64,000 bases of DNA from Pseudomonadota bacterium (GTDB lineage Bacteria > Pseudomonadota > Gammaproteobacteria > Xanthomonadales > SZUA-38). Positions 23,888-64,000 of this stretch are shown piece by piece. The notes beneath the pieces are model-generated. The model had not been told where the DNA came from, ran no database searches, and saw only the letters and a list, made by a program, of their open reading frames with translations. A program made the position numbers and the translations under genes. The first letter of the stretch is position 1. Every line of letters starts with the position of its first letter. The stretch is from contig JBCDKA010000002.1 of NCBI GenBank assembly GCA_038747195.1, positions 19,616-83,615 on the forward strand. The letters run 5' to 3'.

Positions 23888-26269
23888 TCAATTGACTGAG
23901 GACAGGGCCTGTTGGAGCTGCTGCAGCTCAAGCTCATCGGAGGATCGCCAGCCTTCGCCAAGGAGTTGCTTGCGCCGCAGCGCGTGGTCCAGCGCGAGGG
24001 CAGGGTTGTTGTGGTAGGCATGAAAGCGTGACAGGAAAGCCAGGGCATTGGCACTGGCCTGCGCGTCATCGGACAGCTCCTTAGCAAGCATCGCCAGGCG
24101 CTGGTCGGTCGGGTCATAGCCCAATAGCCACAGCCCGAACAGACCGCCGATATCGTAGGCGGCGATCGGGGATTCCTGGCCGCTAGCCTCCTGATAGGCG
24201 GCTGCAATTTGCGTGATGGCGGAGGCCGTATCGCCGCGCTCTAGCGCGAGACGGGCTTTGGCCACCTGTAAATCGACGGCAAGCTGTGAGACCTCTGAGC
24301 TGGCGATGACCGACTCGGCTTTTGCAACCGCCTCCGCGGCGTCGTCGGTTTTCTGGTCGTCCAGTAGCGTGTTAGCCAGAGCGATATGGCTGGTCGCCTG
24401 GCTCAGGGGTTCCTGAATACTGCCGGCCAGGCCCGCCGCGGCCTCAAACAGTTCGGTTGCTCTTCCGATGTTGTGCATGGCTCGTTCCACCCGCCCGCCC
24501 TGCAGCAAGGCATCCGCCTCGCTACTGGGATTGCCTACCTCCGCGGCAATCGAGCGGGCCTGCGCCGCCATTTCGCGGGCTTCGGTAAGACGACCGAGTC
24601 GGCGCAAGGCCGCCGCCAGATCAGAGCTGGCTTGCGCCTCGAGCACCGGATCCTCGTACTCCTGTGCCGCTGCGAGCACGCGCTCCTGAAACGTCAGCGC
24701 CTCCGCCCAGAAACCCCGGACCATCTTGATGTCCGCGAGCACGCTCATGGTCAGGGCAACCTGAAGGGGTAGCTCCAGCTCCCGCCGCAGCTCGAGCGAT
24801 TCTTCCAGCACCGCTTCTGCCTCAGCGTAGCGGGACTGATCGGTGTAGAGATTACCCAGGTTCTTGAGCGCCGTGGCTTCATTAAAGCGGTCGCCGGACT
24901 GCTGGTAATGCTGCAGCGCTTCGAGGAAGCGAACTTCTGCGTCCTGGTACTGGCCCGAGGTAGCGGCCAGGATGCCCAGATTGGCCGTCACGCTGGCGAT
25001 GTAGTCCGCGTTGTTTTCGGCTCGATAGTTTTCCAGTGACTGGTTGTACCAATCCCGCGCTGCGTCTTTGTCGCCACGGCGCCATGCCAGAATGCCCGAG
25101 ACCGACTGCACGGCCGCCAGCATGCTCATGTTCCCGCTGGCCTCCGCGGCCGCCAGCAGCTCCTTGTTGAGCTGGTCTGTATAGTCATAGTCACCGAGGA
25201 ATCGGACCACCAGGCTCAGGTGGTATTTGGCCTCGAGCAGATCCGGCGCCGCCGCCAGCACCGTGTCAAAGTATCGGGCGGCGTCTTCGTGACGGCCCCG
25301 CAAGCGCGCGTCCAGGCCACGCGCGAAGGCTTCGTTAACAAAGACATCGTCCGTCACCAGGCTGCTTTGCGCTCGCTGGGCACCCTGCCAGCGAGACAGC
25401 CGTTCGCTCAGGCTCTGTGCTGCCGCAACAGCCAGCAGCGCAACATCTTCTCCGTAGAGTGACAGCGGCGGCAGGTCACCGCGGGCTTCCACGGGCTGAA
25501 TATCCAGGCGCAGTCCGTCACCCTCCTTGGAAAGTCGGGGAACCAAAACGCTGTCTGCGCCGGTGCTCAGCCGCAGGAGCCGCGCCTGTTCCTCTGGGTC
25601 GGCGGCCTCTGGATAGCGTCGGAGTGTGGCCAGCACAGTTCCCGGACGAACCCTGGTGACACCGGCGTCCGCCAGCGATTCGTCCATCAGCGACGGTATG
25701 CCCAGCCGAGCCCACTCGAGATCGACGTCACCCGTGTCGTTGCGCACCGGCAATACGGCAATTCGGATGGGCTCCCCGCTGCGGCTCGACGGTCGATTGG
25801 TCCAAACTGCCAGGAACGCCACGACCAGCGCGGTCAGGGCGATGGCCCACAGCCAGCCGCTTCGCCCAGCCGGTTTTTCGGGCGTGGTGGTCGATTGATC
25901 CGCGCTGTTTTCCAGACGCTCTACCGGCTGAACAAACCGGTAGCCGACCCCATAAGCGGTAGCGATAAACGATTCGGGCCCTTCTCCGCCGAGGGCTCGG
26001 CGCGCGCGGCTGACGGCCTGGGCTACGGTCGATTCCGAGACCGGTCGTCCGGCCCAGACCTTATCCAGCAGCTCCGCTTTTTCGACGACCCGACCTTCGC
26101 TCGCCATGAGATAGGCCAGCAGATCAAAGGCGCGCTTCTCGATGGCGATTGAATCGCCGTCGATCGTCATTTCGCGGCGGGCGGTGTCGACAATGACCGT
26201 GCCGCACTTAAAGAGGGGCAAGGTAGGCGGTTGCCCGTGATCCGAAATGTCCGAATCCGTTACTTCCAT
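23888..26269 (-). CDS. Membrane-anchored CadC/ToxR-like winged-helix regulator with TolB-N-like and TPR regions
   Basis: N-terminal OmpR/PhoB-type wHTH without receiver (EKRAFDLLAYLMASEGRVVEKAELLDKVW...TAYGVGYRF). One TM (WLWAIALTALVVAFLAVW). IRIAVLPVRNDTGD block, then many TPR-like repeats. Confidence 0.85.
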   Translation of the reverse strand: MEVTDSDISDHGQPPTLPLFKCGTVIVDTARREMTIDGDSIAIEKRAFDLLAYLMASEGRVVEKAELLDKVWAGRPVSESTVAQAVSRARRALGGEGPESFIATAYGVGYRFVQPVERLENSADQSTTTPEKPAGRSGWLWAIALTALVVAFLAVWTNRPSSRSGEPIRIAVLPVRNDTGDVDLEWARLGIPSLMDESLADAGVTRVRPGTVLATLRRYPEAADPEEQARLLRLSTGADSVLVPRLSKEGDGLRLDIQPVEARGDLPPLSLYGEDVALLAVAAAQSLSERLSRWQGAQRAQSSLVTDDVFVNEAFARGLDARLRGRHEDAARYFDTVLAAAPDLLEAKYHLSLVVRFLGDYDYTDQLNKELLAAAEASGNMSMLAAVQSVSGILAWRRGDKDAARDWYNQSLENYRAENNADYIASVTANLGILAATSGQYQDAEVRFLEALQHYQQSGDRFNEATALKNLGNLYTDQSRYAEAEAVLEESLELRRELELPLQVALTMSVLADIKMVRGFWAEALTFQERVLAAAQEYEDPVLEAQASSDLAAALRRLGRLTEAREMAAQARSIAAEVGNPSSEADALLQGGRVERAMHNIGRATELFEAAAGLAGSIQEPLSQATSHIALANTLLDDQKTDDAAEAVAKAESVIASSEVSQLAVDLQVAKARLALERGDTASAITQIAAAYQEASGQESPIAAYDIGGLFGLWLLGYDPTDQRLAMLAKELSDDAQASANALAFLSRFHAYHNNPALALDHALRRKQLLGEGWRSSDELELQQLQQALSSVN

Positions 26270-26386
26270 GGTTTAAGGAGTGTAACGCAGCGACCGGCCT
26301 TAACAGGCCCTTGTTTCCGATCCCGTCATGACATCGTCAGGATCCGTTCAGTACTTCCCGCAAAAGATTTTGCAAAGTGCGATGCT

Positions 26387-26809
26387 ATGAAGGCGATGCT
26401 GATCGTAGTGGCGACAATCACGCTGATGCAGGGCGACCTGGCGGGTCGGCCCGCGGCAGATGTCCCTGAGTTGAGCGCACGATTGCTCGGCCAGTTCTCC
26501 GGGATGGAGCAAGACGGCCGGCGTCAAGTGGACCTGCGAATACGGTTTTTTTCGACCGCCAGCGGCGGTCTGCCGGTCGCTGAGAGGACGTTTTCCGATG
26601 TGCCGCTCGCGGGCGGCCAATTTTCCGTTGCACTGGATCCACGGGGGCTGGCGGGTTCAGCGACGTACGTTGAGGTGGGGCTGCGCCCGGCTGGACGACG
26701 ATATGCGGAGTTTCAACCCGCGGGTCAGCGCCGAGCGCTCGAGCTCGATCAGGGCGGTGTCGAATCGGTCTGGCGTCTCAGGCTGGCCGGCGACGACCCG
26801 GACAGCTAG
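26387..26809 (+). CDS. Small hypothetical exported protein
   Basis: Hydrophobic N-terminus MKAMLIVVATITLM and coding-like composition, but no recognisable motif. Start chosen at ATG 26387 because track start 26231 overlaps the divergent regulator gene. Confidence 0.35.
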   Translation: MKAMLIVVATITLMQGDLAGRPAADVPELSARLLGQFSGMEQDGRRQVDLRIRFFSTASGGLPVAERTFSDVPLAGGQFSVALDPRGLAGSATYVEVGLRPAGRRYAEFQPAGQRRALELDQGGVESVWRLRLAGDDPDS

Positions 26810-35992: not shown

Positions 35993-36198
35993 GTCAGCAT
36001 GTTTCCGCTGTTGTGATTGCGCGGCAACGGTTGCCGGCTAGCCGGCTGCATTTCCTGGCCGCAGAACGACCTAGCTTACGCCCGATTCAGCCTCCGGAAA
36101 CGCTCCACCGTGCTCAGGGGCTTGGCGCATCTCAAGGCCCCTGCAGACGGAAGCGCTGCTACACTCAGGACGAGGGTAGTCCAAGTAGGGGTTTGGTC

Positions 36199-39100
36199 AT
36201 GCCGCGTTTGCGTTTCGTGTCTCTTTTCGTTTTCTTGCTCGGCCCATCGTTGTTGCACGCCGGCGAAAGCATTCAGTTTCGTTTTGAACAAGCGTTGCCC
36301 ACGCTGCAGCAGCCCTGGTTCTTCGGGCTGCGCGGGGGAATTGCCGTAGATGAGGACAACTTCGTCTATGTCACGGAGCGCGATACTGAGGTTATTCGCA
36401 AGTTCAACCGCTCTGGCTTGCTTGTCACAAGCTGGGGTCGGCGAGGCACGGGTGACGGCGAGTTTGCTGGCCCTCATGACGTCGCGCTGAGTGACGACGA
36501 TCGGGTTTATATCACCGATGAGTTCAATCATCGCGTTCAGATTTTCACCCGGGATGGCGTTTACCTCGCGCAGTTTGGTGCCTTTGGAAGCGGCGACGGC
36601 CAGCTGAACCGGCCGACTGGAGTTGCTCAGCACCAGGGGTTTGTCTACGTTGCCGACAGCGAAAATTTCCGGATCCAGAAGTTTACCAGCGACGGTGACT
36701 ATGTCGGCCAGTGGGGCAGCGAAGGCAGCGGCAACGGCCAGTTTCAACGCCCCGAAGACATCGCCATCTCGCGTACGGGATTTGTTTACGTCATTGACCA
36801 GGCCCGACCGTTTATCAACTACGAGAACACTCGTGTTCAGTATTTTGATACGGAGGGCAACTTTATTGGAACGTGGGGCTCTACCGGCACCGGGCTGGGG
36901 CAGTTCCAGGAGCTCGTCGCCATCGAGGTGGATCAGTTTGGCGTTGTCTTTACGTTAGACGAGGATGGCCGGATTCAGCGCTTCACCCCGGACGGCCTGG
37001 GGGTTTCTCAATTCACGATGGATCCTGACGAACTGCCTATCAATCGACCGAGCGGGATTGCCAAAGCCCCGGACGGGCGCATATACGTTCGCGATGTCTC
37101 GCGCGTCTCCCAGTTCCTGCCGACCGGGCAGTTTGCTGATCGCTGGGGCAGCCTGGGTGATGAGCTTGGCCAGTTCAATTTTCCGCTGGGTATTGCGGCC
37201 CAGGCCAACGGTAACCTGCTCGTGTCGAATATCTTCAACAACCGGGTACAGGTCTTCACGCCGGAGGGTATGCCGTTGTCGTCATTCGGCGGTCCCGGGA
37301 GTCCTGGGGAGCTCATCGGACCGGGGCAAATTGCCGTGAGCGCACAGGGCGATATTTATCTGAGCGAACTCACGTCAAGCCGCGTCAGCGTATTCGACGA
37401 GAATTTTAATTTCATCCGGCGAATCGGTAGTTTTGGTTCGGGAAATGGTGAGTTTGACCTCCCGCGTGGCGTAGGGATCGACAGCCAAGGTTTTGTTTAC
37501 GTGGCCGACGGCAACAACCATCGCGTTCAGAAGTTTACCCCTGACGGGACCTACGTTGATCAGTGGGGCGTCAGGGGGAGTGAAAACGGGAACTTCGAAA
37601 GACCCAACTCATTAGTGGTTGGGCCCGGCGATCTCATTTACGTAGCCGATCGCGATCTCGACCGGATTCAGATCTTTGAATCTGACGGAACATTTGTGAG
37701 CGTTTTTGGCGAGAGCGGTACGGGTCCGGGGCAGTTCAATATTCCGGAAAGTATGGCGTTTGATTCGTTTGGCTTCCTTTACGTTGCTGATGTGTTCAAC
37801 GATCGATATCAGGCCTTTACGGCCAATGGGGAGTATGTTGGCAAGTACGATATGCCGGGCGTGGCACCCGGCTCGTTGACCCGGCCTGGCGGCATCTATT
37901 TCGATAACAGCCAGCGGGTTTTCATGGTCGATGGCCGAAATAACCGCCTGCAGCGGTTCAGCCGAGTTGAGTTGCTGCCGGATTCTAAGGTTGTGGTTGT
38001 CGCGGGCGGCGGCCCTTATCCGGGAAATCCCTTGTGGGACGCCACCCAGGTCAACGCCAACTTTGCGTACCGAACGCTAGCCGTTCAGGGTTTCACCGAC
38101 GACCTCATCTACTATCTAACGCCGAACCTGGACCTGGATCTGGACCAAAACGGGAACTCTGATGAAGTGGACGGTGTGCCTACCGCACAGGCTTTGCGGG
38201 AGGGGATTCTGGGATCCTTTGGCGCAGACGCCGACAATCTCACTCTCTATCTCGTAGATCATGGCGGTGACAAAACGTTTCGACTGACCGAGAACGAAAT
38301 CCTCAGCTCGAGTGAGCTCGATAGCTGGTTGGACGAGTGGCAGGCGACCCGGCCCAACGGCAACGTCACCTTGATTTACGACGCGTGCCAGTCGGGCTCT
38401 TTCCTGGATGAACTTCGTGATCCCAATCGGATTCTGATTGCCTCGGCAGGCGCCGAAGAAGCCGCCTATTTTGTTTCCCAGGGCTCCCTGTCATTTTCGA
38501 ATCGCTTCTGGAGCCAGATCTTTAACGGAGCAACGCTGGGCGAAGCCTATGATCTGGCCAGCCAGGCCACCTCAACGGCGTTCCCGCTGCAAAACCCCCT
38601 GCTCGACGCTGACGGCGACGGTAGCTTCAATACGGCTGCCGACCTGGCGGCAATCGAAAATTTGGTGATTGGAGCGGGCACCGAAGTGGACGGTAACGCG
38701 CCGGTGATCACCAGCGTCAGCCCCGTTCAGAACCCGACCGCGAGCACCGCAACGATCGAAGCCAACGGCGTCACCGATGCCGACGGCATTGCCCGGGTGT
38801 GGGCCGTGCTTCGTCCCCCGGGTTTTGCGCCAGACTCGGCCGATAATCCGGTGCAGGATCTCCCGACCGTTGAGCTTACCCAGCAGCCCGGCACAGCTGA
38901 CTATCAGGCGGAGTTTAGCGATTTCACCATTGCCGGAACCTACGATATATCGATTGAGGCCCAAGATCGTATTGGCAATACCGCGATCCCGAGGCTGACC
39001 CAGGTGGTAGTGGGCACACCCGTCAGGCGCCGCGCGGTCATCATCGGTGGCGGTGATCCGTCCGCGCCGGAATTTGCAAACCTGAAGACCAACAGCGATC

Positions 39101-48457: not shown

Positions 48458-49552
48458 CTAGAAGATCACACCCGGAATAATCCAGTCATCATCCCCTTCC
48501 AGCCCGTCGGAAAAGATCTGCGCCTCGTAGGCTCCCAGGTCCACCGCGGGTCCGACGATGCGCCCCATGCCGTCCGCGTCCCTCGGCGGCAGTCCGTCTG
48601 GCACCGGGAGCCCCGCGTCGATCAGCGGTGAGCCGATATTCGGGCTCACGCCAAGCGAGCCAAGACCGAGCTGCGGGTTTCCGCTGAGCGTGCCGGTTTC
48701 CTCCAGGGGATTTGAGCCGGCCAGTGAGTTCAAGAAGTTCCGATTGAGCCGGACGCTGGATCCCGCCAGCAGCAGGTCGTCCCCATTGTTGTCGGCAAAC
48801 ACGTTGTTGAGCAGGCGCACCGTGGCGTTTCCGCCGATCCGGACACCTGCGCCATCATCTGCTGCGGAGTTTTCGGCGATTGTCACGTTGGCTATGAGGT
48901 TCTCCGCGCCGTTCAGCAGCAGCTCGGCGGCGCCGCCATCACCGCCCGCCGCGTTCCGGAAAAACACGGAGTTCTCCAGACGCAGGCTGCCCCGGTCGAG
49001 AATGACATAAAGTCCGGCGCCCTGTTCGGTGGCCTCGTTGAGGTTAAAAATCAGCGTAGAGAACCGATACGACCCCTCCCAGTCCGGCGAAAAGGATCGG
49101 GCGTCGATGCCGCCGCCGTTGAGCGAGATGACGGGATCATTGGCGCCGCCGCGGGTGATCGTCAGGTTTTCGACCGCGATGTCGCCGCTGTCTGGACCCG
49201 GCTGAAGCACCAGCCCCTGAATCTGAAAATCGCCGTCGATGACGGTCAGTCGGGGGTTGTCTTTACGGCTGTCGCATACCGGCGCGTCCGGCGGATCAGG
49301 CGGGCCCCAGCCCCCCGACACCGTCAGGCCGCCGGGCTGGCTGGAGACGTAGCGAAAGCCGTTGTTGGCCGTGGGGACCAGGTACTGGCCCACCATCAAT
49401 CGGATTTCGTCAGTTTCGCTATTCCCGGCTGCGGCCAGCAGCGCGTTTTGGAGTGCGCTTGGGGTGCCGACGCAGAAGATCTCAGCGCGCGCGTTTGACG
49501 TCGCAAACGTCAGCGCCAAACTCAAGGTTATTCCAGAAAGTATCCGTTTCAT
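48458..49552 (-). CDS. Exported right-handed beta-helix protein
   Basis: AAGGAG lies 9 nt before ATG 49552 (track start 49609). Signal peptide MKRILSGITLSLALTFATSNARA. Beta-helix rungs (GGGI, GAGL, GGAA, GAGV), VDLGAYE, then IFSDGLEGDDDWIIPGVIF. Confidence 0.8.
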   Translation of the reverse strand: MKRILSGITLSLALTFATSNARAEIFCVGTPSALQNALLAAAGNSETDEIRLMVGQYLVPTANNGFRYVSSQPGGLTVSGGWGPPDPPDAPVCDSRKDNPRLTVIDGDFQIQGLVLQPGPDSGDIAVENLTITRGGANDPVISLNGGGIDARSFSPDWEGSYRFSTLIFNLNEATEQGAGLYVILDRGSLRLENSVFFRNAAGGDGGAAELLLNGAENLIANVTIAENSAADDGAGVRIGGNATVRLLNNVFADNNGDDLLLAGSSVRLNRNFLNSLAGSNPLEETGTLSGNPQLGLGSLGVSPNIGSPLIDAGLPVPDGLPPRDADGMGRIVGPAVDLGAYEAQIFSDGLEGDDDWIIPGVIF

Positions 49553-49702
49553 CGTAGGGGTCTCCTTACTCAAAGCCGTCGGACCGTCCGGTCCTGCCAT
49601 CGCCTGCACCAGCTCCGCGCTATTGGTGGCGAAGTCCTGGCGTGTTCAGGAGTTCCAACGACGACACCCCCCAAATGTGCACAGCTGGAGGAGACAAAGA
49701 CC

Positions 49703-51373: not shown

Positions 51374-51457
51374 CAGAAATCTTCAGAATAATTTCCTGGA
51401 CCAAGGCGCCTCAAGACCTAACGATACTGTCCCATACGCGAGTCTCCAAGAGGTGTT

Positions 51458-52513
51458 TTGCCGATGAAAGTGCTGATCTTCCCATTTCTGCTGCTGGCTT
51501 TGGTTCACGCGACCGCCGAGTCCGCCGCATCGACCTTCACCCTTGGGGGAGACCTCGATCAAGCCATGGCGGATGAGACGTTCAGGCAGGTCACCAGCGT
51601 GCTGGTTTCCGTCGATGGTGAGAAGGTCTACGAGGCGTACTGGGGGGAAGGGAGTGCAACCCAGCTCAACGACACCCGCTCGGCGATGAAAACGCTGGTG
51701 GCCATGGCGGTTGGCGCGGCGATTGACGACGGCAGCCTGGAAGGCGTTGAGTCGACGGCGATGAAGTGGTTTGAAGCCGACATGCCCACACGCTTTCCCT
51801 CTCGCTTGAAAAACGAGATCACCGTCCGTGATCTGCTCACGATGTCCTCGGCGCTCGACTGCAACGACAACGTCTGGGAATCGCCGGGCAACGAAGAACA
51901 CATGTATCCAGCTCGCCGCTGGACCTATTTTGTGCTCGACCTCCCTACGCGGAAGGACTACCGGCGTGACGAAGCGGGCCTGGGAGAGTTTGCTTACTGC
52001 ACTGCCGGCTCGTTTCTGCTCGGTCAGCTGCTGGAGCGCGCAACTGGGAAGGATGTCGATCGCTATCTGGCAGAGCGCCTTTTCGAGCCGCTAAGCATTA
52101 CCGAGGTGAACTGGGACCGCTCGCCGTCCGGCGAGATCATGACCGGTGGCGGCACCGAACTTAACTCCCGAGATCTGCTCAAGCTGGGCGAGATGCTGTT
52201 GAACGGTGGTTCCCACGACGGCGAGCAGGTGCTCTCAGAGGCCTGGGTCAAGGAAATGATGACCGCCCATCGACAGCCCGGCGAAGATCGGCGGTACGGC
52301 TATCAAATCTGGGCGGAGCCGTTTACGTGCGGTGATCGGCAGCTCTACGGCTGGTATATGTCAGGCAACGGCGGCAATAAGGTGGCGGTGTTTGCCGAGC
52401 TGGACCTGGTGGTTGTGGTGACCGCCACGCTCTACGGGACGCGTGGTATGCACCAGCAGTCCGCTGACATCATCAACGACTATGTGCTGCCTGGTGTTAG
52501 GGGGTGTGGCTAG
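51458..52513 (+). CDS. Exported serine hydrolase (beta-lactamase / PBP-related family)
   Basis: Signal peptide MKVLIFPFLLLALVHATA. S-x-x-K motif in TRSAMKTLV and overall class-C-like layout (YCTAGSFLLG, GNGGNK). Confidence 0.75.
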   Translation: MPMKVLIFPFLLLALVHATAESAASTFTLGGDLDQAMADETFRQVTSVLVSVDGEKVYEAYWGEGSATQLNDTRSAMKTLVAMAVGAAIDDGSLEGVESTAMKWFEADMPTRFPSRLKNEITVRDLLTMSSALDCNDNVWESPGNEEHMYPARRWTYFVLDLPTRKDYRRDEAGLGEFAYCTAGSFLLGQLLERATGKDVDRYLAERLFEPLSITEVNWDRSPSGEIMTGGGTELNSRDLLKLGEMLLNGGSHDGEQVLSEAWVKEMMTAHRQPGEDRRYGYQIWAEPFTCGDRQLYGWYMSGNGGNKVAVFAELDLVVVVTATLYGTRGMHQQSADIINDYVLPGVRGCG

Positions 52514-52531: not shown

Positions 52532-52861
52532 TCAGGTGAAAAGGCAGCCCAGCCCGCCAAAAACCAACGCGCCCAGCGCCAGCAGGATGGCAAAAGGCAG
52601 CAGGGCCGGCAGCAGGATGACCCCGATGATCACCGCAATGATCAGCAGCGGCAGCCCGGCAACCATGACGAGCAGGGTCGAGGCGAAGAGTGCGAGCAGG
52701 CCCAGGCAGACGACCACCGCCAGCAGCAGGCCGGCGGCCTCAGCCAGCGGGTTGTCCCACATCAGTACAGGCATAGGCCCCTGGAAGGCGGTGCCTCCCG
52801 ACACCAGGGACAAAACAACGTAGACAACGGCGATCAGGCCAATAACTCTCAGCATGAACAT
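52532..52861 (-). CDS. Small polytopic membrane protein, hypothetical
   Basis: 109 aa, almost entirely hydrophobic with about 3-4 predicted helices. Same strand as, and 61 nt downstream of, the DUF5989-like gene. Confidence 0.5.
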   Translation of the reverse strand: MFMLRVIGLIAVVYVVLSLVSGGTAFQGPMPVLMWDNPLAEAAGLLLAVVVCLGLLALFASTLLVMVAGLPLLIIAVIIGVILLPALLPFAILLALGALVFGGLGCLFT

Positions 52862-52922
52862 AGTGTCCCGTAGATACTGGGGCCGCGGCCAGTGCCAGAG
52901 GTTGATGAACCGAGCGGAAGAT

Positions 52923-53075
52923 CTAAAACAGCGTGTAGATCAGCGGCGCCAGCGCGGAGCCTTCGCCGAGCACAATGAGCACTCCGAGCAGCACCATCAC
53001 CAGCACAATCGGCGCCAGCCAGTACTTTTTGCGCACCCGCATGAATTTCCAGAGATCGGACAGCAGATCGAACAT
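52923..53075 (-). CDS. DUF5989/SxtK-like 50-aa membrane protein (absent from the supplied ORF track)
   Basis: My own translation of the minus strand gives MFDLLSDLWKFMRVRKKYWLAPIVLVMVLLGVLIVLGEGSALAPLIYTLF*. This is the pattern of the tiny protein normally found with carbamoyltransferase plus SxtJ-like genes. Its ATG shares one nt with the upstream stop (TGATG). Confidence 0.8.
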   Translation of the reverse strand: MFDLLSDLWKFMRVRKKYWLAPIVLVMVLLGVLIVLGEGSALAPLIYTLF

Positions 53076-53488
53076 CAGAAGGGGTTGTCCAGCGATTTTT
53101 CGGTCGTTTGGTCAGACTCGACGCGGTAGCTCTTTGCGTTACCGTCCAGCCGTCGGTCCAGAGGATCTCGCCTCAGCGCGCGCATGACAAGTGCCGTGGG
53201 TACAATCGTCAGAAGGAACACCAGTGTCAAAATCAGGGGCGTGGTGACCCGGCTCAGCAGCAGTCCAAACCTCATCCAGGCGCGATACAGCGGGTCAAGC
53301 GAGGCGGGAGCAACGGTCGACCAGACAACCAGCGCCAGCGCGACCCCAGCGGGCCAGAAGGGTATCGCCACCTCGCGCAGCCAGGGGATCAGCAGGCCGA
53401 AGACCACCAGGATAACCGTCGCCATCGTCCAGCCGAAGTTGGCGAGCTCCCGAGGTGTCAGGTCGCGAATTTTTGCGCGGCTCGCCAT
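53075..53488 (-). CDS. SxtJ-like membrane protein
   Basis: MASRAKIRDLTPRELANFGWTMATVILVVFGLLIPW... is the SxtJ-family pattern as I remember it. Start at ATG 53488 overlaps the carbamoyltransferase stop by 1 nt (TGATG). The track start is 53515. Confidence 0.7.
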   Translation of the reverse strand: MASRAKIRDLTPRELANFGWTMATVILVVFGLLIPWLREVAIPFWPAGVALALVVWSTVAPASLDPLYRAWMRFGLLLSRVTTPLILTLVFLLTIVPTALVMRALRRDPLDRRLDGNAKSYRVESDQTTEKSLDNPF

Positions 53489-55332
53489 CAGTCGAGTTCC
53501 AGGCGTTCGCGCCATGCCGGGTCTTCAGTAAAGGTGGGCTGGTCCGCCTTGCTCAGCACAAATCGATCGACGATCAGGTAGTCCATCTCGGTGCGCATGA
53601 AACAGCGATAGGCGTCCGCCGGCGACTCCACCACGGGCTCACCGCGCACGTTGAACGACGTATTGACCACCAGCGGGCAGCCCGTTTGATCCTTAAACGC
53701 CCGGATCAGCGCGTGATAGCGGGGGTTTTGTTCAGCGTGCACCGTCTGTACCCGGGCAGAGTAGTCCACGTGGGTCACCGCAGGGATTTCGCTTCGTTTG
53801 GTCTGTAAACGGTCGATCCCGCTGAGTGAGTCGGCGTTTTTGTCCGGCGCTATGCGTCGCGCCTCCGCGACCGGCGCCACAATCAGCATGTAGGGAGACG
53901 CTTCGTCCAGTTCAAAATAGTCGCTGGCGTCTTCGGCCAGCACAGACGGCGCAAAAGGCCGGAACGACTCTCGGTATTTGATCTTGAGGTTCATGACCGA
54001 CTGCATCGACTCGCTTCGTGGGTCTCCCAGGATCGATCGACCCCCGAGCGCCCGCGGCCCATATTCCATCTTCCCCTGAAACCAGCCGAGCACGTTCTGC
54101 TCAGCGAGAAGCTGGGCGCCGCGCCCGGCGATCGCTTCTTCGTCCAGCCGTTCGTAGACGGCGCCGAATTCATCAAGCTGCGACTCTATCTCCGCCTCGG
54201 TGTAGGCCGGCCCCAGATAGCTGCCCTGCATGGTGTCAGCGGCGGGCGTCGGCTTCGGTGTTGCGTCATGATCTTCATGCCAGGCGACCAGTGCCGCACC
54301 CAGGGCGCCGCCGGCATCCCCCGCAGCGGGCTGAATCCACAGCCCGTCGAAAGGGCCTTCCCGAAGGACGCGGCCGTTGGCCACGCAGTTCAGCGCCACG
54401 CCGCCTGCCAGACAGAGGTTGCTGGCGCTTGTCTCATCGAAGACAGTCTTTGCCAGGCGAAGGACCACTTCCTCGGTGACGGCCTGGATCGATGCCGCCA
54501 GATCCATCTCCCGCTGGGTAATTTCACTTTCCGGCGCTCGTGGTGGGCCGCCAAACAGTTCGTCGAAGCGCGGGCTGGTCATGGTTAAGCCCGTACAGTA
54601 GTTGAAGTACTGCATGTCGAGCCGGAAGGTGCCATCGGGTTTCAGGTCGAGGAGATGATCGGTAATAAGCCGCTCAAACTTCGGTTCACCGTAGGGCGCC
54701 AGCCCCATCAGCTTGTATTCCCCGGAGTTCACCTTAAAGCCGGTGTAGTAGGTAAACGCGGAATAAAGCAGGCCAAGCGAGTGCGGGAAATCGATTTCCC
54801 AAAGTGGCGTGAGCTCCTTTCCCTGGCCACGCCAGACCGAGGTTGTCGCCCACTCGCCGACGCCGTCGATGCACAGGACCGCCGCGTCGTCGAAGGGGCT
54901 CGGGTAGAAAGCAGAAGCGGCGTGCGACTGGTGATGTTCAGCAAAACGCAGTCGCGGAATCTCCGTTTTCTTGCAGCCGCCGATCTCCGCCAGCGCAACC
55001 TTAAGCGTGTTTTTGAGGTACAGCTTCTCCTTAAGCCAGATGGGCATAGCGGTCAGAAATGACCTTAAGCCCCGCGGTGCATAGCTCAGATAGGTTTCAA
55101 GCAGCCGTTCAAATTTCACCAGAGGTTTGTCGTAGAACACCACCTGATCGAGGTCATGCAGGCTGATGCCGGTCTCCTTGAGCGCTCGCCGTAGCGCCAG
55201 CGCGGGAAACGCGGCATCGTGCTTTTTTCGGCTGAACCGCTCTTCCTGGGCGGCAAACAGGATCTCCCCGTCACCCAGCAGCGCCACCGCACTGTCGTGG
55301 TAGTACGCCGATATGCCCAGTATGTATTTCAA
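53488..55332 (-). CDS. Carbamoyltransferase (NodU/CmcH family)
   Basis: N-terminus KYILGISAYYHDSAVALL, with HHQSHAASAF and GGVALNCVANG blocks and a C-terminal carbamoyltransferase domain (PAVTHVDYSARVQTV...NTSFNVRGEP). Apparent TTG start at 55332, 6 nt after the TIR gene stop. Confidence 0.9.
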   Translation of the reverse strand: MKYILGISAYYHDSAVALLGDGEILFAAQEERFSRKKHDAAFPALALRRALKETGISLHDLDQVVFYDKPLVKFERLLETYLSYAPRGLRSFLTAMPIWLKEKLYLKNTLKVALAEIGGCKKTEIPRLRFAEHHQSHAASAFYPSPFDDAAVLCIDGVGEWATTSVWRGQGKELTPLWEIDFPHSLGLLYSAFTYYTGFKVNSGEYKLMGLAPYGEPKFERLITDHLLDLKPDGTFRLDMQYFNYCTGLTMTSPRFDELFGGPPRAPESEITQREMDLAASIQAVTEEVVLRLAKTVFDETSASNLCLAGGVALNCVANGRVLREGPFDGLWIQPAAGDAGGALGAALVAWHEDHDATPKPTPAADTMQGSYLGPAYTEAEIESQLDEFGAVYERLDEEAIAGRGAQLLAEQNVLGWFQGKMEYGPRALGGRSILGDPRSESMQSVMNLKIKYRESFRPFAPSVLAEDASDYFELDEASPYMLIVAPVAEARRIAPDKNADSLSGIDRLQTKRSEIPAVTHVDYSARVQTVHAEQNPRYHALIRAFKDQTGCPLVVNTSFNVRGEPVVESPADAYRCFMRTEMDYLIVDRFVLSKADQPTFTEDPAWRERLELD

Positions 55333-55338
55333 TGAGGA

Positions 55339-57600
55339 CTAGCCGTCGCGGCCGAGAATCTGCCGGAAGCGAGGGGTGTCGCGAAAGGCGGCAAAATCCG
55401 GGTGATGGGTAAAGCGGATGCCGTCATAGCTCGATGGCGTTTGCAGAAGAAAAGCCATTTGATCGAGCGCCTCGTCGACTCGCCCGAGGACCGCCATAAT
55501 CTCCATGAGCTGGTAGCCAACCTCCATCGCGAGCAGCGGATCTTTCTCCGAAGGCATCAGCGCCGCACCTTGCTGTGCGTGCTCAAAGGCGAGCTGTGCC
55601 TCCTCAAGCTCGGCATAAGTCTTGCCCAGCGCCAGATGAATACGAAAGTCTTCTGGGCTTTCCTCAAGCTTCGACACCAGGTGGGTCAGGGCAGACTCCA
55701 GCCGGGTCCTGGCTTCCTCGGGTCGTTGCAGCCGCCTCAGAACCATACCCGCCAGATAGTCGGTTAACACGTAGTGGGCCTGCAGCGGGAAGACGGTTCT
55801 GGGAGAGTTCAGTACCCGGTCCAAAGCGGCCTGCGGGTCACCTTCGTAAAGGTGCTGGTAGAACCACGGATAAACGGTAAAACCCGACCGCGGGTTGGGG
55901 AAGGACTCCAGCATCGCCCGGCCTCCTTCGAGATCACCTTCTTCTCCACGGCACCAGATGGCAAAGAGGCTGAATAGCGGCGCCGTTTCGCTGCCCGGCG
56001 CCAGTTCGCGCGTCCGGCCCAGGAGCCTTATCCCTTCGTCATAGTCATCGAGCAGAACTTGGGTCCAGCCCGTTTCGAGCGTCATCCGGGCGTTGAGCGG
56101 GTCCAGGGTCAACGTCTTTTGCAGCATCTGAAGTGCGGATTTTGTGAGGCCCTGGCGGCGCCAGATGAATCCCATGCGCTGCAGCACCTCGGGGTCGTTA
56201 GGCCGGGAGTCCAGCAACCCTGCGAGAATGTCTTGAGCGCGGTCGTAGTCGCGCAGGCGATAATGATAGTCGGCCTCCAGCAGCATCGTGGCAGGGAGGT
56301 TAGGGGAGAGCGTCTGAGCTTTTTCGATCCGAGACAGGGCCGTGTCCAATCGCTCAGGTGTGAAGTCATAGCCGTTCCAGTAAAGCCCCATATCGGCGCC
56401 CGCCAGTTCCAGCCAGGCTTCGGGAAAGTTTGGGTCGAGTCGCGTGGCCTGCTCCAGGAGCTGATGCGCCTCCCGAAAGCGATCCTCGGAACCATGGCCC
56501 GTGCCGATTCGGTGCCGGCCCTGCAGGTAAGCTTCGAATGCCAGCGCGTTGTGGCTCTCCCAGCGCCTAACCTGCTCCCGTTCTGCCTGGGACAGCGACA
56601 CATTCAGCCCTTCGATCACCTTCGAGGCAATATCGGACTGCATCTTCAGGAGGTCGCTCATCGGTTGATCAAGCTGGCCGCTCCATAGCAACCTGTTGTC
56701 AGACGCCTGCGTCAGTTCGGCGTTGACTCGAACCTGTCGGGCGTCTCCCGATTCATTCGACCAGCGCACGCTCCCCGAGAGCAAATAGTCGGCTCCCACC
56801 GTCTTGGCGAGCTCGTCGGAGGGCACCCCCTGAGCCTCGAGCTGCCGCACGCTGTTGGGGCCAATGACCGACAGAAAGCGGAGTCCAGACAGCCGGCTGT
56901 TCAGCTCGGCCGAGATACCCTCAGAAAAAACGTTGTCTGCCGCTTCGCCGATGTTGGTGAAGCTCAAGATGGCGAGTTTGGGGGTCGGCGCCGTCGACGA
57001 ATCAGGCGCAGGCTCCGGCGTTGTAGCTGCGGGAGAGGCCGAGCTGGGTTCGGCGTCGCGCTGCCAGGGCAAACCGTCAGGCAGCACCTTCCAGATGAGT
57101 ATGCCCACAGCTAGCCCGATGGCGGTAGACCAGGTCAGCTTCTTGCCGGAGGCGGACGTTCGGTTTGCGCCAACCGCTGACGTTGCCGCGGCGGGCGGTG
57201 CATCATCAGGGTCGCCAAGCCGGGCGCGGATCGCGGCGAGCACCTCCTCGATGGCTGCGCGATCTGTCTGCCCATTCCAGCGGGAAAGATCAATACAGTG
57301 AAACTGGCGGAAGCCGATTGGCGGTTCGCTGCCGTCGAGGCTCAAGGCAATGAGTTTGCCGGCGTCCGCAGCTACCGAAGCCTCATCCTTGACCCATCGC
57401 GAGCCGGTAGAGGCGCTGGACCAGGCGACCAGCACGGCACCGGCCGCGCCGAGCTCACGCTCGATATCGGCGGAAAACTCGTCGCCGCCGACCAGCCGCC
57501 GATCCCACCAGATCGAGTAATCGTGCGCCGCCAGCGCTTGCGCCAGCTGTTCGATTCGGTCGCGGTCACTGCGCGCGTAGGAGATGAACAGATCGGCCAA
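55339..57600 (-). CDS. TIR-domain / single-TM / TolB-N-like / TPR protein
   Basis: N-terminal TIR_2-like ADLFISYARSD...YSIWWDRRLVGGDEF...AVLVAWSSASTGSRWVKDEASVA, with the conserved Glu in WVKDE. One TM (WSTAIGLAVGILIWKVL). LAILSFTNIGE...YLLSGSV block, then TPR repeats. Apparent TTG start at 57600 with AGGAAAG upstream. Confidence 0.85.
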   Translation of the reverse strand: MADLFISYARSDRDRIEQLAQALAAHDYSIWWDRRLVGGDEFSADIERELGAAGAVLVAWSSASTGSRWVKDEASVAADAGKLIALSLDGSEPPIGFRQFHCIDLSRWNGQTDRAAIEEVLAAIRARLGDPDDAPPAAATSAVGANRTSASGKKLTWSTAIGLAVGILIWKVLPDGLPWQRDAEPSSASPAATTPEPAPDSSTAPTPKLAILSFTNIGEAADNVFSEGISAELNSRLSGLRFLSVIGPNSVRQLEAQGVPSDELAKTVGADYLLSGSVRWSNESGDARQVRVNAELTQASDNRLLWSGQLDQPMSDLLKMQSDIASKVIEGLNVSLSQAEREQVRRWESHNALAFEAYLQGRHRIGTGHGSEDRFREAHQLLEQATRLDPNFPEAWLELAGADMGLYWNGYDFTPERLDTALSRIEKAQTLSPNLPATMLLEADYHYRLRDYDRAQDILAGLLDSRPNDPEVLQRMGFIWRRQGLTKSALQMLQKTLTLDPLNARMTLETGWTQVLLDDYDEGIRLLGRTRELAPGSETAPLFSLFAIWCRGEEGDLEGGRAMLESFPNPRSGFTVYPWFYQHLYEGDPQAALDRVLNSPRTVFPLQAHYVLTDYLAGMVLRRLQRPEEARTRLESALTHLVSKLEESPEDFRIHLALGKTYAELEEAQLAFEHAQQGAALMPSEKDPLLAMEVGYQLMEIMAVLGRVDEALDQMAFLLQTPSSYDGIRFTHHPDFAAFRDTPRFRQILGRDG

Positions 57601-60496: not shown

Positions 60497-60970
60497 ATGA
60501 CCTCGAAACTACAAACCATCGCCGCTGCTTTCGCCATGCTCACCGCCGTCAACGCGGCGCAGGGTGAGGGGTTGGGAGCCCATCCGCCCATGTTTCTGGT
60601 GCAGGCGGAATACGCGCTGGAGGCGGGTGACACGACCCGCGCGATCGAACTGCTGAACAGGCGGTACAAGCGACTGCGCAATCCCGCCTACCGCGTCCGG
60701 GGCTTGGCCGTGCTCTGCAGCGCCCACCTTCAGGACGAGGACTTCGAGCGGGCGTTCCGCCCCTGCGAAAGCGCGACCGAAATGCAGCAAGCGGGCTGGA
60801 GTGATTTCAACAACCGGGGCGTGCTCGAGCTGCATCTCGGCCGCTTTGATGAGGCGCTGGCTTCGTTTGAGCGGGCTCGGCAGATGAATCCCGAATCCGA
60901 ATCGGTGCTGAACAATCTGGCGCGCACCCGCGCCATCCGGGACAACGCGCTGGTGTCTTCATCCCAATAG
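60497..60970 (+). CDS. Small exported TPR-repeat protein
   Basis: Signal peptide (AAAFAMLTAVNAAQG). TPR-like helices (AEYALEAGDTTRAIELL, NNRGVLELHLGRFDEALASFERARQMNP). Confidence 0.7.
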   Translation: MTSKLQTIAAAFAMLTAVNAAQGEGLGAHPPMFLVQAEYALEAGDTTRAIELLNRRYKRLRNPAYRVRGLAVLCSAHLQDEDFERAFRPCESATEMQQAGWSDFNNRGVLELHLGRFDEALASFERARQMNPESESVLNNLARTRAIRDNALVSSSQ

Positions 60971-61174: not shown

Positions 61175-62599
61175 ATGTCATCTTGTCCTGTACAACATCA
61201 TGGAATGACCAAAGCCAAAGGCTGTAGCCACGCACGTCTAGGCAACTTCGGCAAGCTGTTTCCCAAGCTCACGCCGCTGAGTTTGAGCGAAGAGCAGGCC
61301 TCGCTGCTCGGCGGGCTCAACTCGCCGATGCACGACATCGGCAATCAGTCGCCTGACAGCAAGCTGCCCGCGGGTTACACCTTTTTTGCGCAGTTTGTCG
61401 ATCACGACATCACGCTGGATACCACCTCGGACCTGCACGGCGCGCCGCTTTCCACCGGCGCAATCATCAAGCTGCCCAATCTGCGAACGCCGACGCTGGA
61501 CCTGGATTGTGTGTATGGCTTCGGCCCCGAGGCGAGTCCGCATCTGTATGCCGGCGCCACGGCACCCGGACGGCTGCTCGAGGGCAGCGCGGGAAATCCG
61601 GACGACGTTCCGCGCAACGAGTCCGGAACCGCACTCATCGGGGATCCGCGCAACGACGAAAACTTGTTTGTATCGCAGATGCAGCTGCTGTTCATTCGGT
61701 TCCACAACCGGATCTATGACTCGCTGGTAGCGAGCGTCCCGCTGGGCGAGCGTTTCGAAGAGGCTCAGAAAATAGCTCGGTACCACTACCAGTATCTTGT
61801 GGTGCACGACTTCCTGCGCCGGATCTGCGACCCGAAGATCTTCGAGTTTGCGCTGAAGAAGGTCGCTGATCATCACTACCCGCTGGTCTACGCGGCGGAC
61901 AAACACGGCAACCTGCCCATGCCGGTGGAGTTCAGCGTGGCGGCGTACCGCTTTGGCCACACCACGGTGCGCTCAACCTACGCTGCTAACAGCCAGTTTC
62001 CCGACGTGGATCTGTTTGACGAACGCTTCGGCACCACCGGATTTTCGACGCTGCCGCCGGAGCTGACGGTGGATTGGCGATTCCTGCTGCCCGTGGACAA
62101 ATGTTTGTCGCCACTGCTGGCGAAGCGGTTCGACATTCTGTTCCCCGAAGAGCTGATCGCCATGCCCGACCCGATTGTTGGTCGTGGGGCCAGCAGCAAC
62201 GAGCGGTCGTTGGCCTTCCGCAATCTGCTGCGGGGCAACGCGCTGGCGCTTCCCTGCGGTCAGGCCGTGGCGGGTGCGCTGAAGGACGCCGGCTATCCGA
62301 TCAGCGTGAACTTCACCCCGCTGAAGCTGGCTGAGGTCATCCCGGCGGATCCTGCGACCCAGCCGCTGGTCGACGAGACCCCGCTGTTTTTCTACCTGAT
62401 GCGCGAAGCCGGCACGCTCGGCAAGGGCGAGCGGCTCGGCCCGACCGGTTCGGCGATTCTGCTGGAAGTATTTCTTGGCGGGCTGCTGCATTGCGAGGAC
62501 AGCGTTCTCAAAGACCCGGACTGGAAGCCCGACCCGTGTATCGCCGGGCCTGGCAAAACGTTCGAGCTCGCAGACGTCGTGCGTTACGTGGGGGCCTAG
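61175..62599 (+). CDS. Animal-haem-peroxidase / cyclooxygenase superfamily protein (short bacterial form)
   Basis: FFAQFVDHDITLD (distal His motif), GDPRNDENLFVSQMQLLFIRFHN, AAYRFGHTTV (proximal His motif). No signal peptide. GGGAGG lies 6 nt before the ATG. Confidence 0.8.
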   Translation: MSSCPVQHHGMTKAKGCSHARLGNFGKLFPKLTPLSLSEEQASLLGGLNSPMHDIGNQSPDSKLPAGYTFFAQFVDHDITLDTTSDLHGAPLSTGAIIKLPNLRTPTLDLDCVYGFGPEASPHLYAGATAPGRLLEGSAGNPDDVPRNESGTALIGDPRNDENLFVSQMQLLFIRFHNRIYDSLVASVPLGERFEEAQKIARYHYQYLVVHDFLRRICDPKIFEFALKKVADHHYPLVYAADKHGNLPMPVEFSVAAYRFGHTTVRSTYAANSQFPDVDLFDERFGTTGFSTLPPELTVDWRFLLPVDKCLSPLLAKRFDILFPEELIAMPDPIVGRGASSNERSLAFRNLLRGNALALPCGQAVAGALKDAGYPISVNFTPLKLAEVIPADPATQPLVDETPLFFYLMREAGTLGKGERLGPTGSAILLEVFLGGLLHCEDSVLKDPDWKPDPCIAGPGKTFELADVVRYVGA

Positions 62600-62730: not shown

Positions 62731-62744
62731 GACCGCTTGGACGA

Positions 62745-64000
62745 CTAACCCTCCAGCTTGGCGAGCGAACTCATCAAGAGCTCATAGTCGTCCGTTTCCT
62801 TAAGGTATGGCTGAGCCGCCTCCATCAGGGCTTTGCCTTCGGCGATCTTGCCCTCGAGAACGCGACATCGACCCAGATGAAATCGGCTTTGATTGCTGGA
62901 GACCGAGTCTTCACCGCGCAGCTCGAGCCGCAGGGCCATGGTGGCGGCGATACGCTTACAGCCCTCAACGCTTTTGCCATTGGCCAGCAGGATCTTGCCC
63001 AGCTCGTGGCTGGCACCCGCCGTGTGTAGATGGTTGTCGGGCAGCGTTGAGCTGAGCACGCGCACCGTTTCCCGCCAGTAGGATTCGGCCCGATCCAGCT
63101 GGCCCAGATCTCGAGCAACCCGTCCGAGATAGCCCAAGGTCCAAGCCATCTTGGGATGATCGCCGCGATAGATCTCTCGTTCGCGATCCCGGACCTGACG
63201 CAGCAGGCGCTCTGATTCGGTGAGGTTGCCCAAGCCGATTTCCAGCACCGCCAAGTTGCGCAGCGTGGTCAGGGTTCGAGGGTGGGTTGGACCGAGTCCC
63301 GCTTCCTGAATGGCGGCTGCTTCCCGGTATAGCTCGCCGGCCTCGGCACGGCGAGCCTGCTTGTGCAGCACCACACCGTAGTCCGCTTTGGATAGCGCCA
63401 GCGCGAGGTCGTCAGCCGGCAACAGCTGGCTCCGAAGCTCAAGCGCCTGGCGGTGAAACTCGCCGGATTTCGCGTTGTCGCGCAGCTCGGAGTAGGTCAC
63501 GCCCAGCGAAGAGTAGATTTTTGCTAGCGCCAGCGGATCAAAGCCTGCGCTGTCGCGGGCGATGGTGAGCGCTCGCCCGAGGTTGTCTAAAGCGGCGGTG
63601 AATTCGCCGGCGCCGCGCTGGGAATTCCCCAGCTGACGCAGCGTGGCTGCGACGCTCGCCGCGGACGCCCCGGCCTGATCTTTTAAGGCCAGGCTGCGCT
63701 GAAAATGATCGATCGCGGCGGGATACTCTGCCAGCGAGTGGTAGATACCGCCGAGATTGTCGAGCATCTCCGCCTTGAGAACCGGCTGATCGGCGAGCCG
63801 GCCCTCTAGCACCACGCTTCCCTGGTCGACCATCTCTTTGATGGTGAGCTCCTGTCCCAGGCTGACCTCCGGGGAAGCGTTGCTGAACAGCTCCTGCAGA
63901 AACCCCGAGATTTCTTGGGCTTTGGCGGTCTCGAGGCGCGCTGCGTCGCGCTGCTCGGCAATCCGCTTGGACTGCCAGGTCACCGTTCCGGCATAAGCCA
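62745..64000 (-). CDS. TPR-repeat sensor protein, N-terminus beyond the window (likely post-TM part of a kinase-type or similar sensor)
   Basis: The frame remains open to nt 64000 (..AYAGTVTWQSKRIAEQRDAARLETAKAQEISGFLQELF). This juxtamembrane pattern plus TPR_12-like repeats is typical of membrane sensor proteins. The output domain is not visible. Confidence 0.75.
   Translation of the reverse strand, partial: AYAGTVTWQSKRIAEQRDAARLETAKAQEISGFLQELFSNASPEVSLGQELTIKEMVDQGSVVLEGRLADQPVLKAEMLDNLGGIYHSLAEYPAAIDHFQRSLALKDQAGASAASVAATLRQLGNSQRGAGEFTAALDNLGRALTIARDSAGFDPLALAKIYSSLGVTYSELRDNAKSGEFHRQALELRSQLLPADDLALALSKADYGVVLHKQARRAEAGELYREAAAIQEAGLGPTHPRTLTTLRNLAVLEIGLGNLTESERLLRQVRDREREIYRGDHPKMAWTLGYLGRVARDLGQLDRAESYWRETVRVLSSTLPDNHLHTAGASHELGKILLANGKSVEGCKRIAATMALRLELRGEDSVSSNQSRFHLGRCRVLEGKIAEGKALMEAAQPYLKETDDYELLMSSLAKLEG

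Follow-up and report, generated by a model that had tools for sequence, protein, structure and literature searches.

Transmembrane transcription regulators (TTRs) of the ToxR/CadC type, such as E. coli CadC and V. cholerae ToxR, carry a receiver-less winged helix-turn-helix (wHTH) domain of the OmpR/PhoB class, one transmembrane (TM) helix and an extracytoplasmic C-terminus; the text of a survey of these regulators does not mention tetratricopeptide repeats (TPRs) (PMC10269533). In Xanthomonas citri, the 833-aa kinase PknS, which has periplasmic TPRs, phosphorylates the extracytoplasmic function (ECF) sigma factor EcfK of group ECF43 (PMC13147305), and in Myxococcus xanthus the large periplasmic TPR module of the single-pass protein DdvA is believed to respond to a signal from the envelope and to control an ECF sigma factor (PMC11506125). 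Here we examined five receptors of comparable layout encoded in a 64,000-nt stretch of the genome of a Pseudomonadota bacterium (assembly GCA_038747195.1, contig JBCDKA010000002.1, positions 19,616 to 83,615), referred to below as the window. We call them sensor A (23888..26269, minus strand), sensor B (49703..51373, minus), sensor C (a sigma/kinase pair extending to 48448, plus), sensor D (55339..57600, minus) and sensor E (62745..64000, minus). The set consists of two wHTH regulators, two sigma/kinase pairs and one protein with a TIR domain. A alone of the five shows real cross-genome evidence of controlling an adjacent gene for a secreted protein.

A first-pass annotation of the window had read these genes as one family of sensors with exchangeable outputs, placed non-randomly beside genes for surface exoproteins. 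Its observations are largely right and its interpretation is partly supported. All five open reading frames (ORFs) are present where it had located them, and Pfam matches together with hydropathy give each the layout it described: a cytoplasmic output, one TM helix and a helical-repeat ectodomain. In the Pfam matches, A and B have a Trans_reg_C output with no Response_reg match, C has an ECF sigma factor followed by a Pkinase domain (45579..46235 and 46235..48448), and D has a TIR_2 match. E is cut by the window edge, and the remainder is supplied by a near-identical contig (L001, 3 mismatches in 8376 nt), where E proves to be a kinase preceded by a sigma factor, hence the second sigma/kinase pair of the set. 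A single hydrophobic segment follows the output domain in every protein (residues 137-157 in A, 136-152 in B, 311-333 in C, ~157-172 in D and 392-410 in E); these segments were called by Kyte-Doolittle (KD) hydropathy only, and that of B is the weakest (KD 1.61). TPR matches lie in the C-terminal part of all five, in C only as a weak TPR_19 match.

The repeat regions themselves do not form a family. An all-versus-all blastp comparison of the post-TM regions gave a best E-value of 0.001 over 48 aa, and full-length comparison paired only A with B (wHTH and TM helix, 30% identity) and C with E (26% over 586 aa, from the kinase onward). The first-pass annotation had itself named alignment of the TPR regions as the check on common origin, and on alignment these regions are unrelated, the outcome it had set against its own proposal. 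The five are probably independent single-pass receptors of three known classes, with the N-terminus inside the cell (N-in), and not a set of paralogues.

A and D do have one ectodomain feature in common, a TolB-N-like block next to the membrane that the annotation had pointed out. Family profiles of the two blocks align in hhalign with a Prob of 92.3% (E 5.4e-7), and AF2 models of the juxtamembrane domains (pLDDT 88.5 for A and 88.2 for D) both match GNA1162, the TolB N-domain, the LpoB C-domain and PelC in Foldseek searches (including 4hrv; E 1e-5 to 3e-7, TM-scores 0.5-0.66), with the order beta-alpha-alpha-alpha-beta-beta-beta-alpha. This is the TolB-N/LpoB/PelC/GNA1162 fold (COG5616, 'TolB-like protein'), which in A and D, unlike in those proteins, is fused behind a TM helix and before TPRs inside signalling proteins. 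The literature searched yielded no account of how COG5616 functions in such a TM/TPR signalling context. Inspection of the sequences, with no profile comparison run, showed no TolB-like block in B, C or E, and the first TPR of B begins only ~40 residues after the TM helix. Database-wide, homologues covering the entire ectodomain of D carry an N-terminal TIR, Pkinase, Guanylate_cyc or Trans_reg_C domain, and JGI names many of them 'TolB-like protein'. The idea of interchangeable outputs is borne out by these D-type ectodomains across databases and fails within the window's own five genes.

The full model of the annotation derives all five from one sensor family by divergence and couples each of them functionally to a neighbouring exoprotein gene whose product bears a common C-terminal tail (described below). 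It can draw on the layout, the juxtamembrane domain of A and D, the output swapping of D-type ectodomains elsewhere, and the contact of three of the five units with a tail-bearing gene. It has to contend with the unrelated post-TM regions, the restriction of the TolB-like block to two of the proteins on inspection, an in-window adjacency that is within chance, a conserved partner of B that is a hydrolase of family PF00144, and the absence of any exoprotein neighbour of D and E, both here and in relatives. The evidence on B, D and E already contradicts the model, which as a whole we regard as highly improbable.

For A, an independent line of evidence comes from a family-specific cis-element. 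Sensor A has a wHTH domain at residues 39-112 (Trans_reg_C, E 2.9e-17), a TM segment of KD 2.1, the TolB-N/LpoB/PelC-like domain at ~165-300 and TPRs at ~350-790, and has ~40 full-length orthologues at 45-90% identity in metagenome-assembled genomes (MAGs) of Lysobacterales. The element associated with this family consists of three direct repeats of yTGACg at an 11-bp phase. Its exact core, CTGACG-N6-TGACG, occurs once in the window, between A and a divergent small gene, and in 11 of 171 loci, lying directly upstream of an A-family gene in 10 of these 11, down to 28% protein identity. We built an operator matrix from nine loci of other genomes, excluding the window's lineage, and its two top sites in the window flank A, at 23754..23786 (score 25.6) and 26320..26352 (17.5), the third-best site scoring 6.8. 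Among 300 first-order Markov windows, none reached 25.6 and 8 reached 17.5. Predicted operator 1 (26320..26352, minus; ACTGAAC / CCTGACG / CATGACG, 11-bp phase) lies in the 117-nt divergent region between A and the small gene. Predicted operator 2 (23754..23786, plus; CTTGAAC / GCTTGACG / CTCTAACG) lies 64 nt upstream of the ATG (23690) of a gene for a secreted Calx-beta repeat protein (21858..23693, minus; Pfam Calx-beta, with a signal peptide), and its repeats point away from that gene. It falls within a 103-nt block that is ~99% identical to the corresponding region of L007, the coding DNA being ~86% identical. A motif at first treated as separate, TCAAGC-N5-TCAAGC, with chance-level counts, proved to be the A-type operator read on the opposite strand. 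Simple searches for terminators and promoters were uninformative, both in the A-Calx gap and in the gap between B and its neighbouring beta-helix gene.

Among the genes behind these operators, those for proteins with a common C-terminal signature are over-represented. Eight window proteins carry the motif [LIV]F-x-[DSN]-[GS]-F-E, at the extreme C-terminus in the products of 65..2116, 13195..18741, 20129..21619, 36013..40062, 40868..42379, 43774..45516 and 48458..49609, and internally in the Calx-beta protein, where LFADGFE is followed by a 106-aa extra domain at the C-terminus. Over all loci we collected 43 non-redundant tail proteins with the consensus [LI]-F-x-[DN]-G-F-E followed by 0-7 (once 12) residues. 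Their hosts are otherwise unrelated secreted proteins across Lysobacterales (beta-helix, NHL, GH10, DUF5122 and Calx-beta), and tail proteins also occur in L004, L006, L007, L010, L012, L014, L015, L019, L033, L039, L042 and L052. Three proteins carry the tail immediately behind a choice-of-anchor Q domain scoring above cut-off, the position at which other lineages carry sorting signals. The exoproteins have no signal of the PEP-CTERM, GlyGly-CTERM, MYXO-CTERM or a similar type, in which a TM helix and a basic cluster come after a signature motif, and no hydrophobic helix at their tails, and we found no description of the [LI]FxDGFE tail in the literature searched.

In the window, the Calx-beta gene and then a secreted beta-helix protein gene (20129..21619, minus; product ending LFRDSFES*) follow A, an order that the annotation had given correctly and that is retained at an 88% orthologue (L007). 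In other relatives, an operator sits just downstream of the A-family sensor in at least 10 loci (including L005, L007, L012, L030, L039, L042, L045, L052 and L061), and the gene behind a post-sensor operator is tail-ended in L012, L039, L052, L042, L045, L033 and L044, with a second tail gene after the first in L039 and L052. The L010 operator occupies the promoter of a convergent gene, whose product is a tail protein of 1102 aa. Across 943 kb of A-family loci there are 32 matrix matches scoring at least 12, nearly all of them upstream or just downstream of the sensor or at the promoter of a neighbour. Of the 23 genes targeted by an operator, 9 bear the tail, compared with 49 of the 606 other genes (odds ratio 7.3, p 7.7e-5); since some sensor genes remain among the targets, this count is conservative. 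The targets behind A-type operators belong to at least eight unrelated families.

The same tendency appears when operators are set aside and only gene position is considered. In 51 GTDB loci, 11 of 94 sensor-adjacent genes are tail-bearing, compared with 19 of 474 others within 10 kb (odds ratio 3.2, p 0.005; the loci are not independent), and the density of tail genes falls with gene distance from an A-family sensor, from 21% to 18% and 11%, then to 6%. Within the window, the claim that placement is not random did not hold up: shuffling gene order gave P=0.22-0.26 for three of five sensors adjacent to a tail gene and P=0.09-0.12 for four adjacent slots, because 8 of ~42 genes bear the tail. 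Comparison with other genomes was needed to decide the question. These permutation values (0.09-0.26 overall) favour an explanation in which abundant accessory genes have come together by chance or in shared variable regions and no sensor, A included, regulates an exoprotein; so do the separation of the Calx-beta and beta-helix genes from A orthologues at 47-61% identity and the lack of significance of the exact-pattern window scan alone. Such pure co-location is unlikely, since a matrix derived from other genomes places the top window site in the A-Calx gap, the operator recurs before unrelated tail-bearing genes in many genomes, and the enrichment persists in the local control of genes within 10 kb.

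Several points nevertheless weigh against regulation of the neighbouring exoprotein by A. The exact-pattern scan is, by itself, not significant in the window, and the third repeat of the Calx operator (CTCTAACG) is degenerate. At 47-61% identity the Calx-beta and beta-helix genes no longer adjoin A; there, a divergent operon lies next to it, encoding a GH10 xylanase and a DUF5122 propeller, each with the tail at its end. The matrix scan found no operator upstream of 20129..21619, which may be co-transcribed with the Calx-beta gene. Genes of the relatives were called with a crude ORF caller based on G+C at third codon positions, and tails were called by regular expression. The loci are related by phylogeny, so the Fisher p-values overstate their independence; at least eight different target gene families are nonetheless represented. 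Finally, we infer the N-in topology, DNA binding, the ligand and the direction of regulation. With these reservations, a regulatory link from A to the downstream Calx-beta exoprotein gene is supported by the family-specific operator, which constitutes evidence independent of gene adjacency, and the Calx-beta gene is predicted to be a direct target of A. The proposed repeated modules of envelope sensor and exoprotein, and the conservation of neighbourhood by which they were to be judged, are supported for A through its operator and the operator-linked tail genes across relatives; they are not supported for B, whose deeply conserved partner is PF00144, or for D and E, which have no exoprotein partner.

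On its other side, A diverges from a gene for a small secreted protein of ~140 aa (26387..26809, plus) whose product has no Pfam or NCBIfam family. Homologues of ~140 aa lie upstream of the A-family gene on the opposite strand in at least 11 loci (L003, L004, L005, L006, L007, L011, L013, L014/L018, L015 and L020 among them). In some loci this gene is the first or last of the GH10/DUF5122 operon (last in L006 and L011), and in L014/L018 it seems to be fused to the N-terminus of the DUF5122 protein. The predicted operator, the conserved partner and a predicted set of tail-bearing exoproteins under its control mark the A type as a new form of ToxR-like regulator.

Some further observations concern A-family loci and the Calx-beta protein. 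Secreted proteins of ~95-103 aa with a T[IV]GQPD motif and the same tail recur no more than three genes from A-family homologues (L020 5579.., L022 9492.., L023 7325.. and L025 7190..). High-scoring A-type operators also occur 4-6 kb from the sensor (L031 6761..6793 and 7225..7257; L073 16494..16526), at the promoters of 187-220-aa genes whose products end in PTNV.V.V.SS and which may be additional regulon members lacking the tail. The Calx-beta protein contains two near-identical repeats of ~115 aa (residues ~138-250 and ~253-365), one more than its L007 orthologue, and the 106-aa domain after its internal tail holds a WRLAT..E motif that is perhaps reminiscent of DUF1566. The synteny comparison is bounded by two contig ends: that of L005 comes right after the A orthologue (288 nt beyond it), so the expected Calx-beta region is missing there, and that of L087 comes after the D operon.

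In the mechanism we propose, A and B would be ToxR/CadC-like transmembrane transcription regulators whose periplasmic TPR region senses a ligand, probably a protein or peptide, with the TolB-N-like domain of A standing between the membrane and the TPR region. The C-terminal part of both would be periplasmic, because the wHTH domain must reach DNA and because Arg/Lys residues precede the TM helix. Sensing would alter the oligomeric state, upon which the membrane-tethered wHTH domain would bind phased direct repeats near its own gene, 35-70 nt upstream of the target start codons. Membrane tethering of the regulator would keep its targets close to its own gene. These steps are modelled on ToxR/CadC-type regulators and PhoB-type wHTH domains. 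Operator 1 of A would control the divergent operon, comprising the small secreted protein and then two S9 peptidases, and operator 2 the downstream Calx-beta exoprotein gene, while in relatives the A operator would front various secreted proteins ending in [LI]FxDGFE. The yTGAAG x3 operator of B, described below, would act on a divergent PF00144 hydrolase. Phased direct repeats as predicted operators and predicted targets that adjoin the regulator, as cadBA adjoins cadC, would fit the TTR class. The periplasmic part differs, being a long TPR superhelix (preceded in A by the TolB-N/LpoB/PelC-like domain) in place of the CadC and ToxR sensor folds, and no co-transcribed ToxS/VtrC-like partner is present, A having a divergent small secreted protein instead.

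The tail that the predicted A targets have in common makes one extension of this mechanism attractive, though unsupported, namely that the TPR superhelix of A recognises the acidic [LI]FxDGFE-COOH tail and feeds back on transcription in response to cargo waiting for export or to clipped tails. Parallels exist in DegS, which senses the C-termini of outer-membrane proteins, and in the TPR 'carboxylate clamps' that bind EEVD-COOH. We consider tail recognition by A quite unlikely. If true, it would make the tail an undescribed export or sorting tag of Lysobacterales, at the position where PEP-CTERM-type anchors sit elsewhere.

Sensor B is likewise ToxR-like, with a wHTH domain at residues 37-111 (Trans_reg_C, E 7.5e-13), the TM helix and a TPR region, and has no TolB-like domain. 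The annotation had paired it with the beta-helix gene downstream of it, which encodes a secreted beta-helix/choice-of-anchor Q protein (48458..49552, minus, or to 49609 in the tail list; product ending IFSDGLEGDDDWIIPGVIF*) and lies between B and the kinase of C. Orthologues of B are found at 94% and 73% identity in close relatives, and B-like genes at 27-33% in distant ones. The close relatives L088 and L089 keep a block of exoprotein, sigma factor, kinase, convergent beta-helix gene and B; at the eight distant B-like loci we found no homologue of the beta-helix, kinase or sigma gene. What recurs at distance is the gene on the other side of B, a divergent gene for a secreted serine hydrolase of the beta-lactamase family (PF00144 by Pfam; 51458..52513, plus). 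Homologues of this hydrolase (25-38% identity) adjoin B-like genes in L090, L091, L092, L094, L095, L096 and L097, so that a PF00144 neighbour is present in 7 of 8 distant metagenomic B-like loci, mostly in divergent orientation.

A predicted operator points the same way. Direct repeats TGAAG / TGATG / TGAAG at 51361..51385 (minus) overlap the start of B and face the PF00144 gene. The window holds exactly one such triple array, against a shuffle mean of 0.1, and yTGAAG x3 arrays (10-11 bp) lie upstream of B-like genes in L090-L096; there is no B-type operator upstream of the beta-helix gene 48458..49552. Since the conserved partner and the position of the operator both point to the hydrolase, the best-supported candidate target of B is the divergent PF00144 gene and not the beta-helix gene. 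Counting against this assignment, ~70 nt downstream of B, before the beta-helix gene(s), are conserved in L088, a stretch at which some regulator acts, and B may do so through another site. L088 also has an additional tail-bearing beta-helix paralogue directly after B and, at ~2490..2660, a 173-nt insertion rich in hairpin-forming repeats, resembling miniature inverted-repeat transposable elements or repetitive extragenic palindromes, between the B orthologue and the beta-helix promoter; this insertion is absent from the window and from L089. The arrangement of B and PF00144 is like that of AmpR-AmpC, except that the regulator is membrane-bound.

The beta-helix gene could instead belong, perhaps together with 43774..45516, to the regulon of sigma/kinase pair C. 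The block they form is kept at 73-94% B-orthologue identity despite gain and loss of surrounding genes, and the beta-helix promoter is conserved without carrying a B-type operator. We judge this assignment rather unlikely, as the comparison draws on close relatives only, no promoter motif is common to the sigma upstream region and the exoprotein promoters, and the region upstream of 43774..45516 is not conserved in L088. That gene (43774..45516, plus) lies upstream of pair C and encodes a secreted PMP-like beta-helix protein ending in LLSDGFEDP*; the order exoprotein, sigma factor, kinase is kept only where the B orthologue shares 73% identity or more (L088 and L089). The sigma gene has its own conserved upstream block, and a scan of the exoprotein and sigma promoters for the ECF-type pattern GGAAC-N16-CGT gave nothing usable.

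C and E would both act as pairs of the PknS/EcfK type, in which a periplasmic domain governs autophosphorylation of the kinase and the kinase activates the co-transcribed ECF sigma factor. In pair C the sigma gene (45645..46235, plus) likely begins at a GTG at 45645, giving 196 aa, within an ORF that opens at 45579; L089 also annotates it at 196 aa, and there is a 4-nt overlap between its stop and the kinase ATG. Sensor C proper (46235..48448, plus) consists of a Hanks-type Ser/Thr kinase domain (66-256), the TM helix and a helical ectodomain with a weak TPR signal. Pair E is the closer match to the Xanthomonas system. The complete kinase (L001 7121..9589) has 822 aa, similar to the 833 aa of PknS, with a Pkinase domain, TM helix and strong TPR_12, and the portion in the window (62745..64000, minus) is its C-terminal TPR_12/TPR_10 ectodomain. 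Its best PDB match is 9EED (X. citri PknS 1-364, E 5.7e-48), residues 10-365 aligning to PknS 2-361 with the ~90-aa N-terminal extension included. The sigma factor of E (186 aa, PF07638; L001 9574..10134) is encoded by a gene that overlaps the kinase gene by 16 nt.

The two pairs differ in the feature that characterises ECF43, where uncharged residues including a conserved Thr (consensus QTTA) take the place of DxxD in sigma2.2 (PMC13147305). Sigma2.2 of the E sigma factor reads LNTTGLVNE, with Thr-rich NTTG at the place of QTTA, and that of the C sigma factor reads ETEDLVQI, with the acidic residues kept; both were compared by eye and not with ECF group hidden Markov models. Pair C has the same gene order as PknS/EcfK, with its 4-nt overlap, but its kinase aligns with PknS only in the catalytic core (residues 62-246), shows no match to the N-terminal extension and no strong TPRs, and is coupled to the acidic ETED. 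The retained acidic sigma2.2 tells against our account of this pair, to which phospho-activation of the ECF43 type may not apply. Because of ETED and the core-only PknS match, pair C may belong to another kinase-linked ECF group, such as ECF59-62, 217, 267 or 283 (PMC7826278). Neither pair in the window has a type VI secretion cluster nearby, in which they differ from PknS/EcfK. Another transmembrane Hanks kinase/sigma pair is PknT/EcfP of Vibrio parahaemolyticus. DdvA is also N-in and single-pass with a periplasmic TPR module, but it is an anti-sigma factor released by proteolysis whose TPRs are joined to a CHAT protease, and none of the five window proteins has an anti-sigma or CHAT domain. 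The annotation's expectation of an exoprotein beside each sensor is not realised at E, where a haem peroxidase gene and a DUF900 gene are found instead, in the window and in relatives. A small TPR protein (60497..60970) and a gene of the animal-haem-peroxidase family (61175..62599) separate a LysR regulator from kinase E, an arrangement kept in L001, L087 and L089.

Sensor D (55339..57600, minus) combines TIR_2 (residues 5-119, E 1.7e-20), the TM helix, the TolB-N-like domain (~205-335), a TPR region and a TPR end-of-group domain. Like the TIR NADases (Thoeris ThsB and others), it has the conserved S-x-W-x-x-x-E helix, in the form SRWVKDE (family consensus SRWVxDEA), whose Glu is the presumed catalytic residue. 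It differs from Thoeris in being anchored in the membrane with a large periplasmic sensor and in having no defence island and no effector partner, ThsA or other, among its neighbours. PADLOC assigns neither D nor A to a defence system, with only TIR-level matches for D, and we found no description of a TIR-TM-TPR architecture in the literature searched. The gene for a carbamoyltransferase (53488..55332, minus) begins 6 nt after D and is followed by an SxtJ-like gene (53075..53515, minus); both are probably in an operon with D. The operon-like run 52532..57600 (minus) comprises D, these two genes, a DUF5989 gene and a gene for 107-109 aa. The carbamoyltransferase run is conserved after D in close relatives only (L087 and L089), whereas D homologues at 32-33% identity have unrelated neighbours and no such run. 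In neither the window nor relatives does D adjoin an exoprotein gene, its neighbours being the carbamoyltransferase operon and a sulfatase. We propose that D would be an orphan membrane TIR protein co-transcribed with the carbamoyltransferase operon.

The surroundings of the five receptors are consistent in character. The window has a G+C content of ~61% and ~42 genes, many of which, by the ORF listing and Pfam/NCBIfam matches, encode secreted hydrolases or large beta-helix, NHL and Calx-beta proteins. Its nearest relatives are Lysobacterales (Xanthomonadales) MAGs near Wenzhouxiangellaceae, and the host is a secretome-rich gammaproteobacterium of the Lysobacterales type. At the start of the window, a two-component system of the LytTR type and a separate membrane LytTR protein (2134..3426, 9151..9867 and 9837..11648) lie beside the tail-bearing beta-helix gene 65..2116, which may be another neighbourhood of regulator and exoprotein.

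The likeness of layout alone had overstated the kinship of five neighbouring receptors. Membrane-bound one-component regulators whose ectodomain is built of TPRs abound in environmental Proteobacteria and are, to our knowledge, essentially uncharacterised. One such family now gains items that can be tested: a predicted operator, a conserved small partner and a predicted regulon with a common C-terminal tag. What periplasmic TPR sensors sense, and what purpose the [LI]FxDGFE tail serves, can now be approached by experiment.

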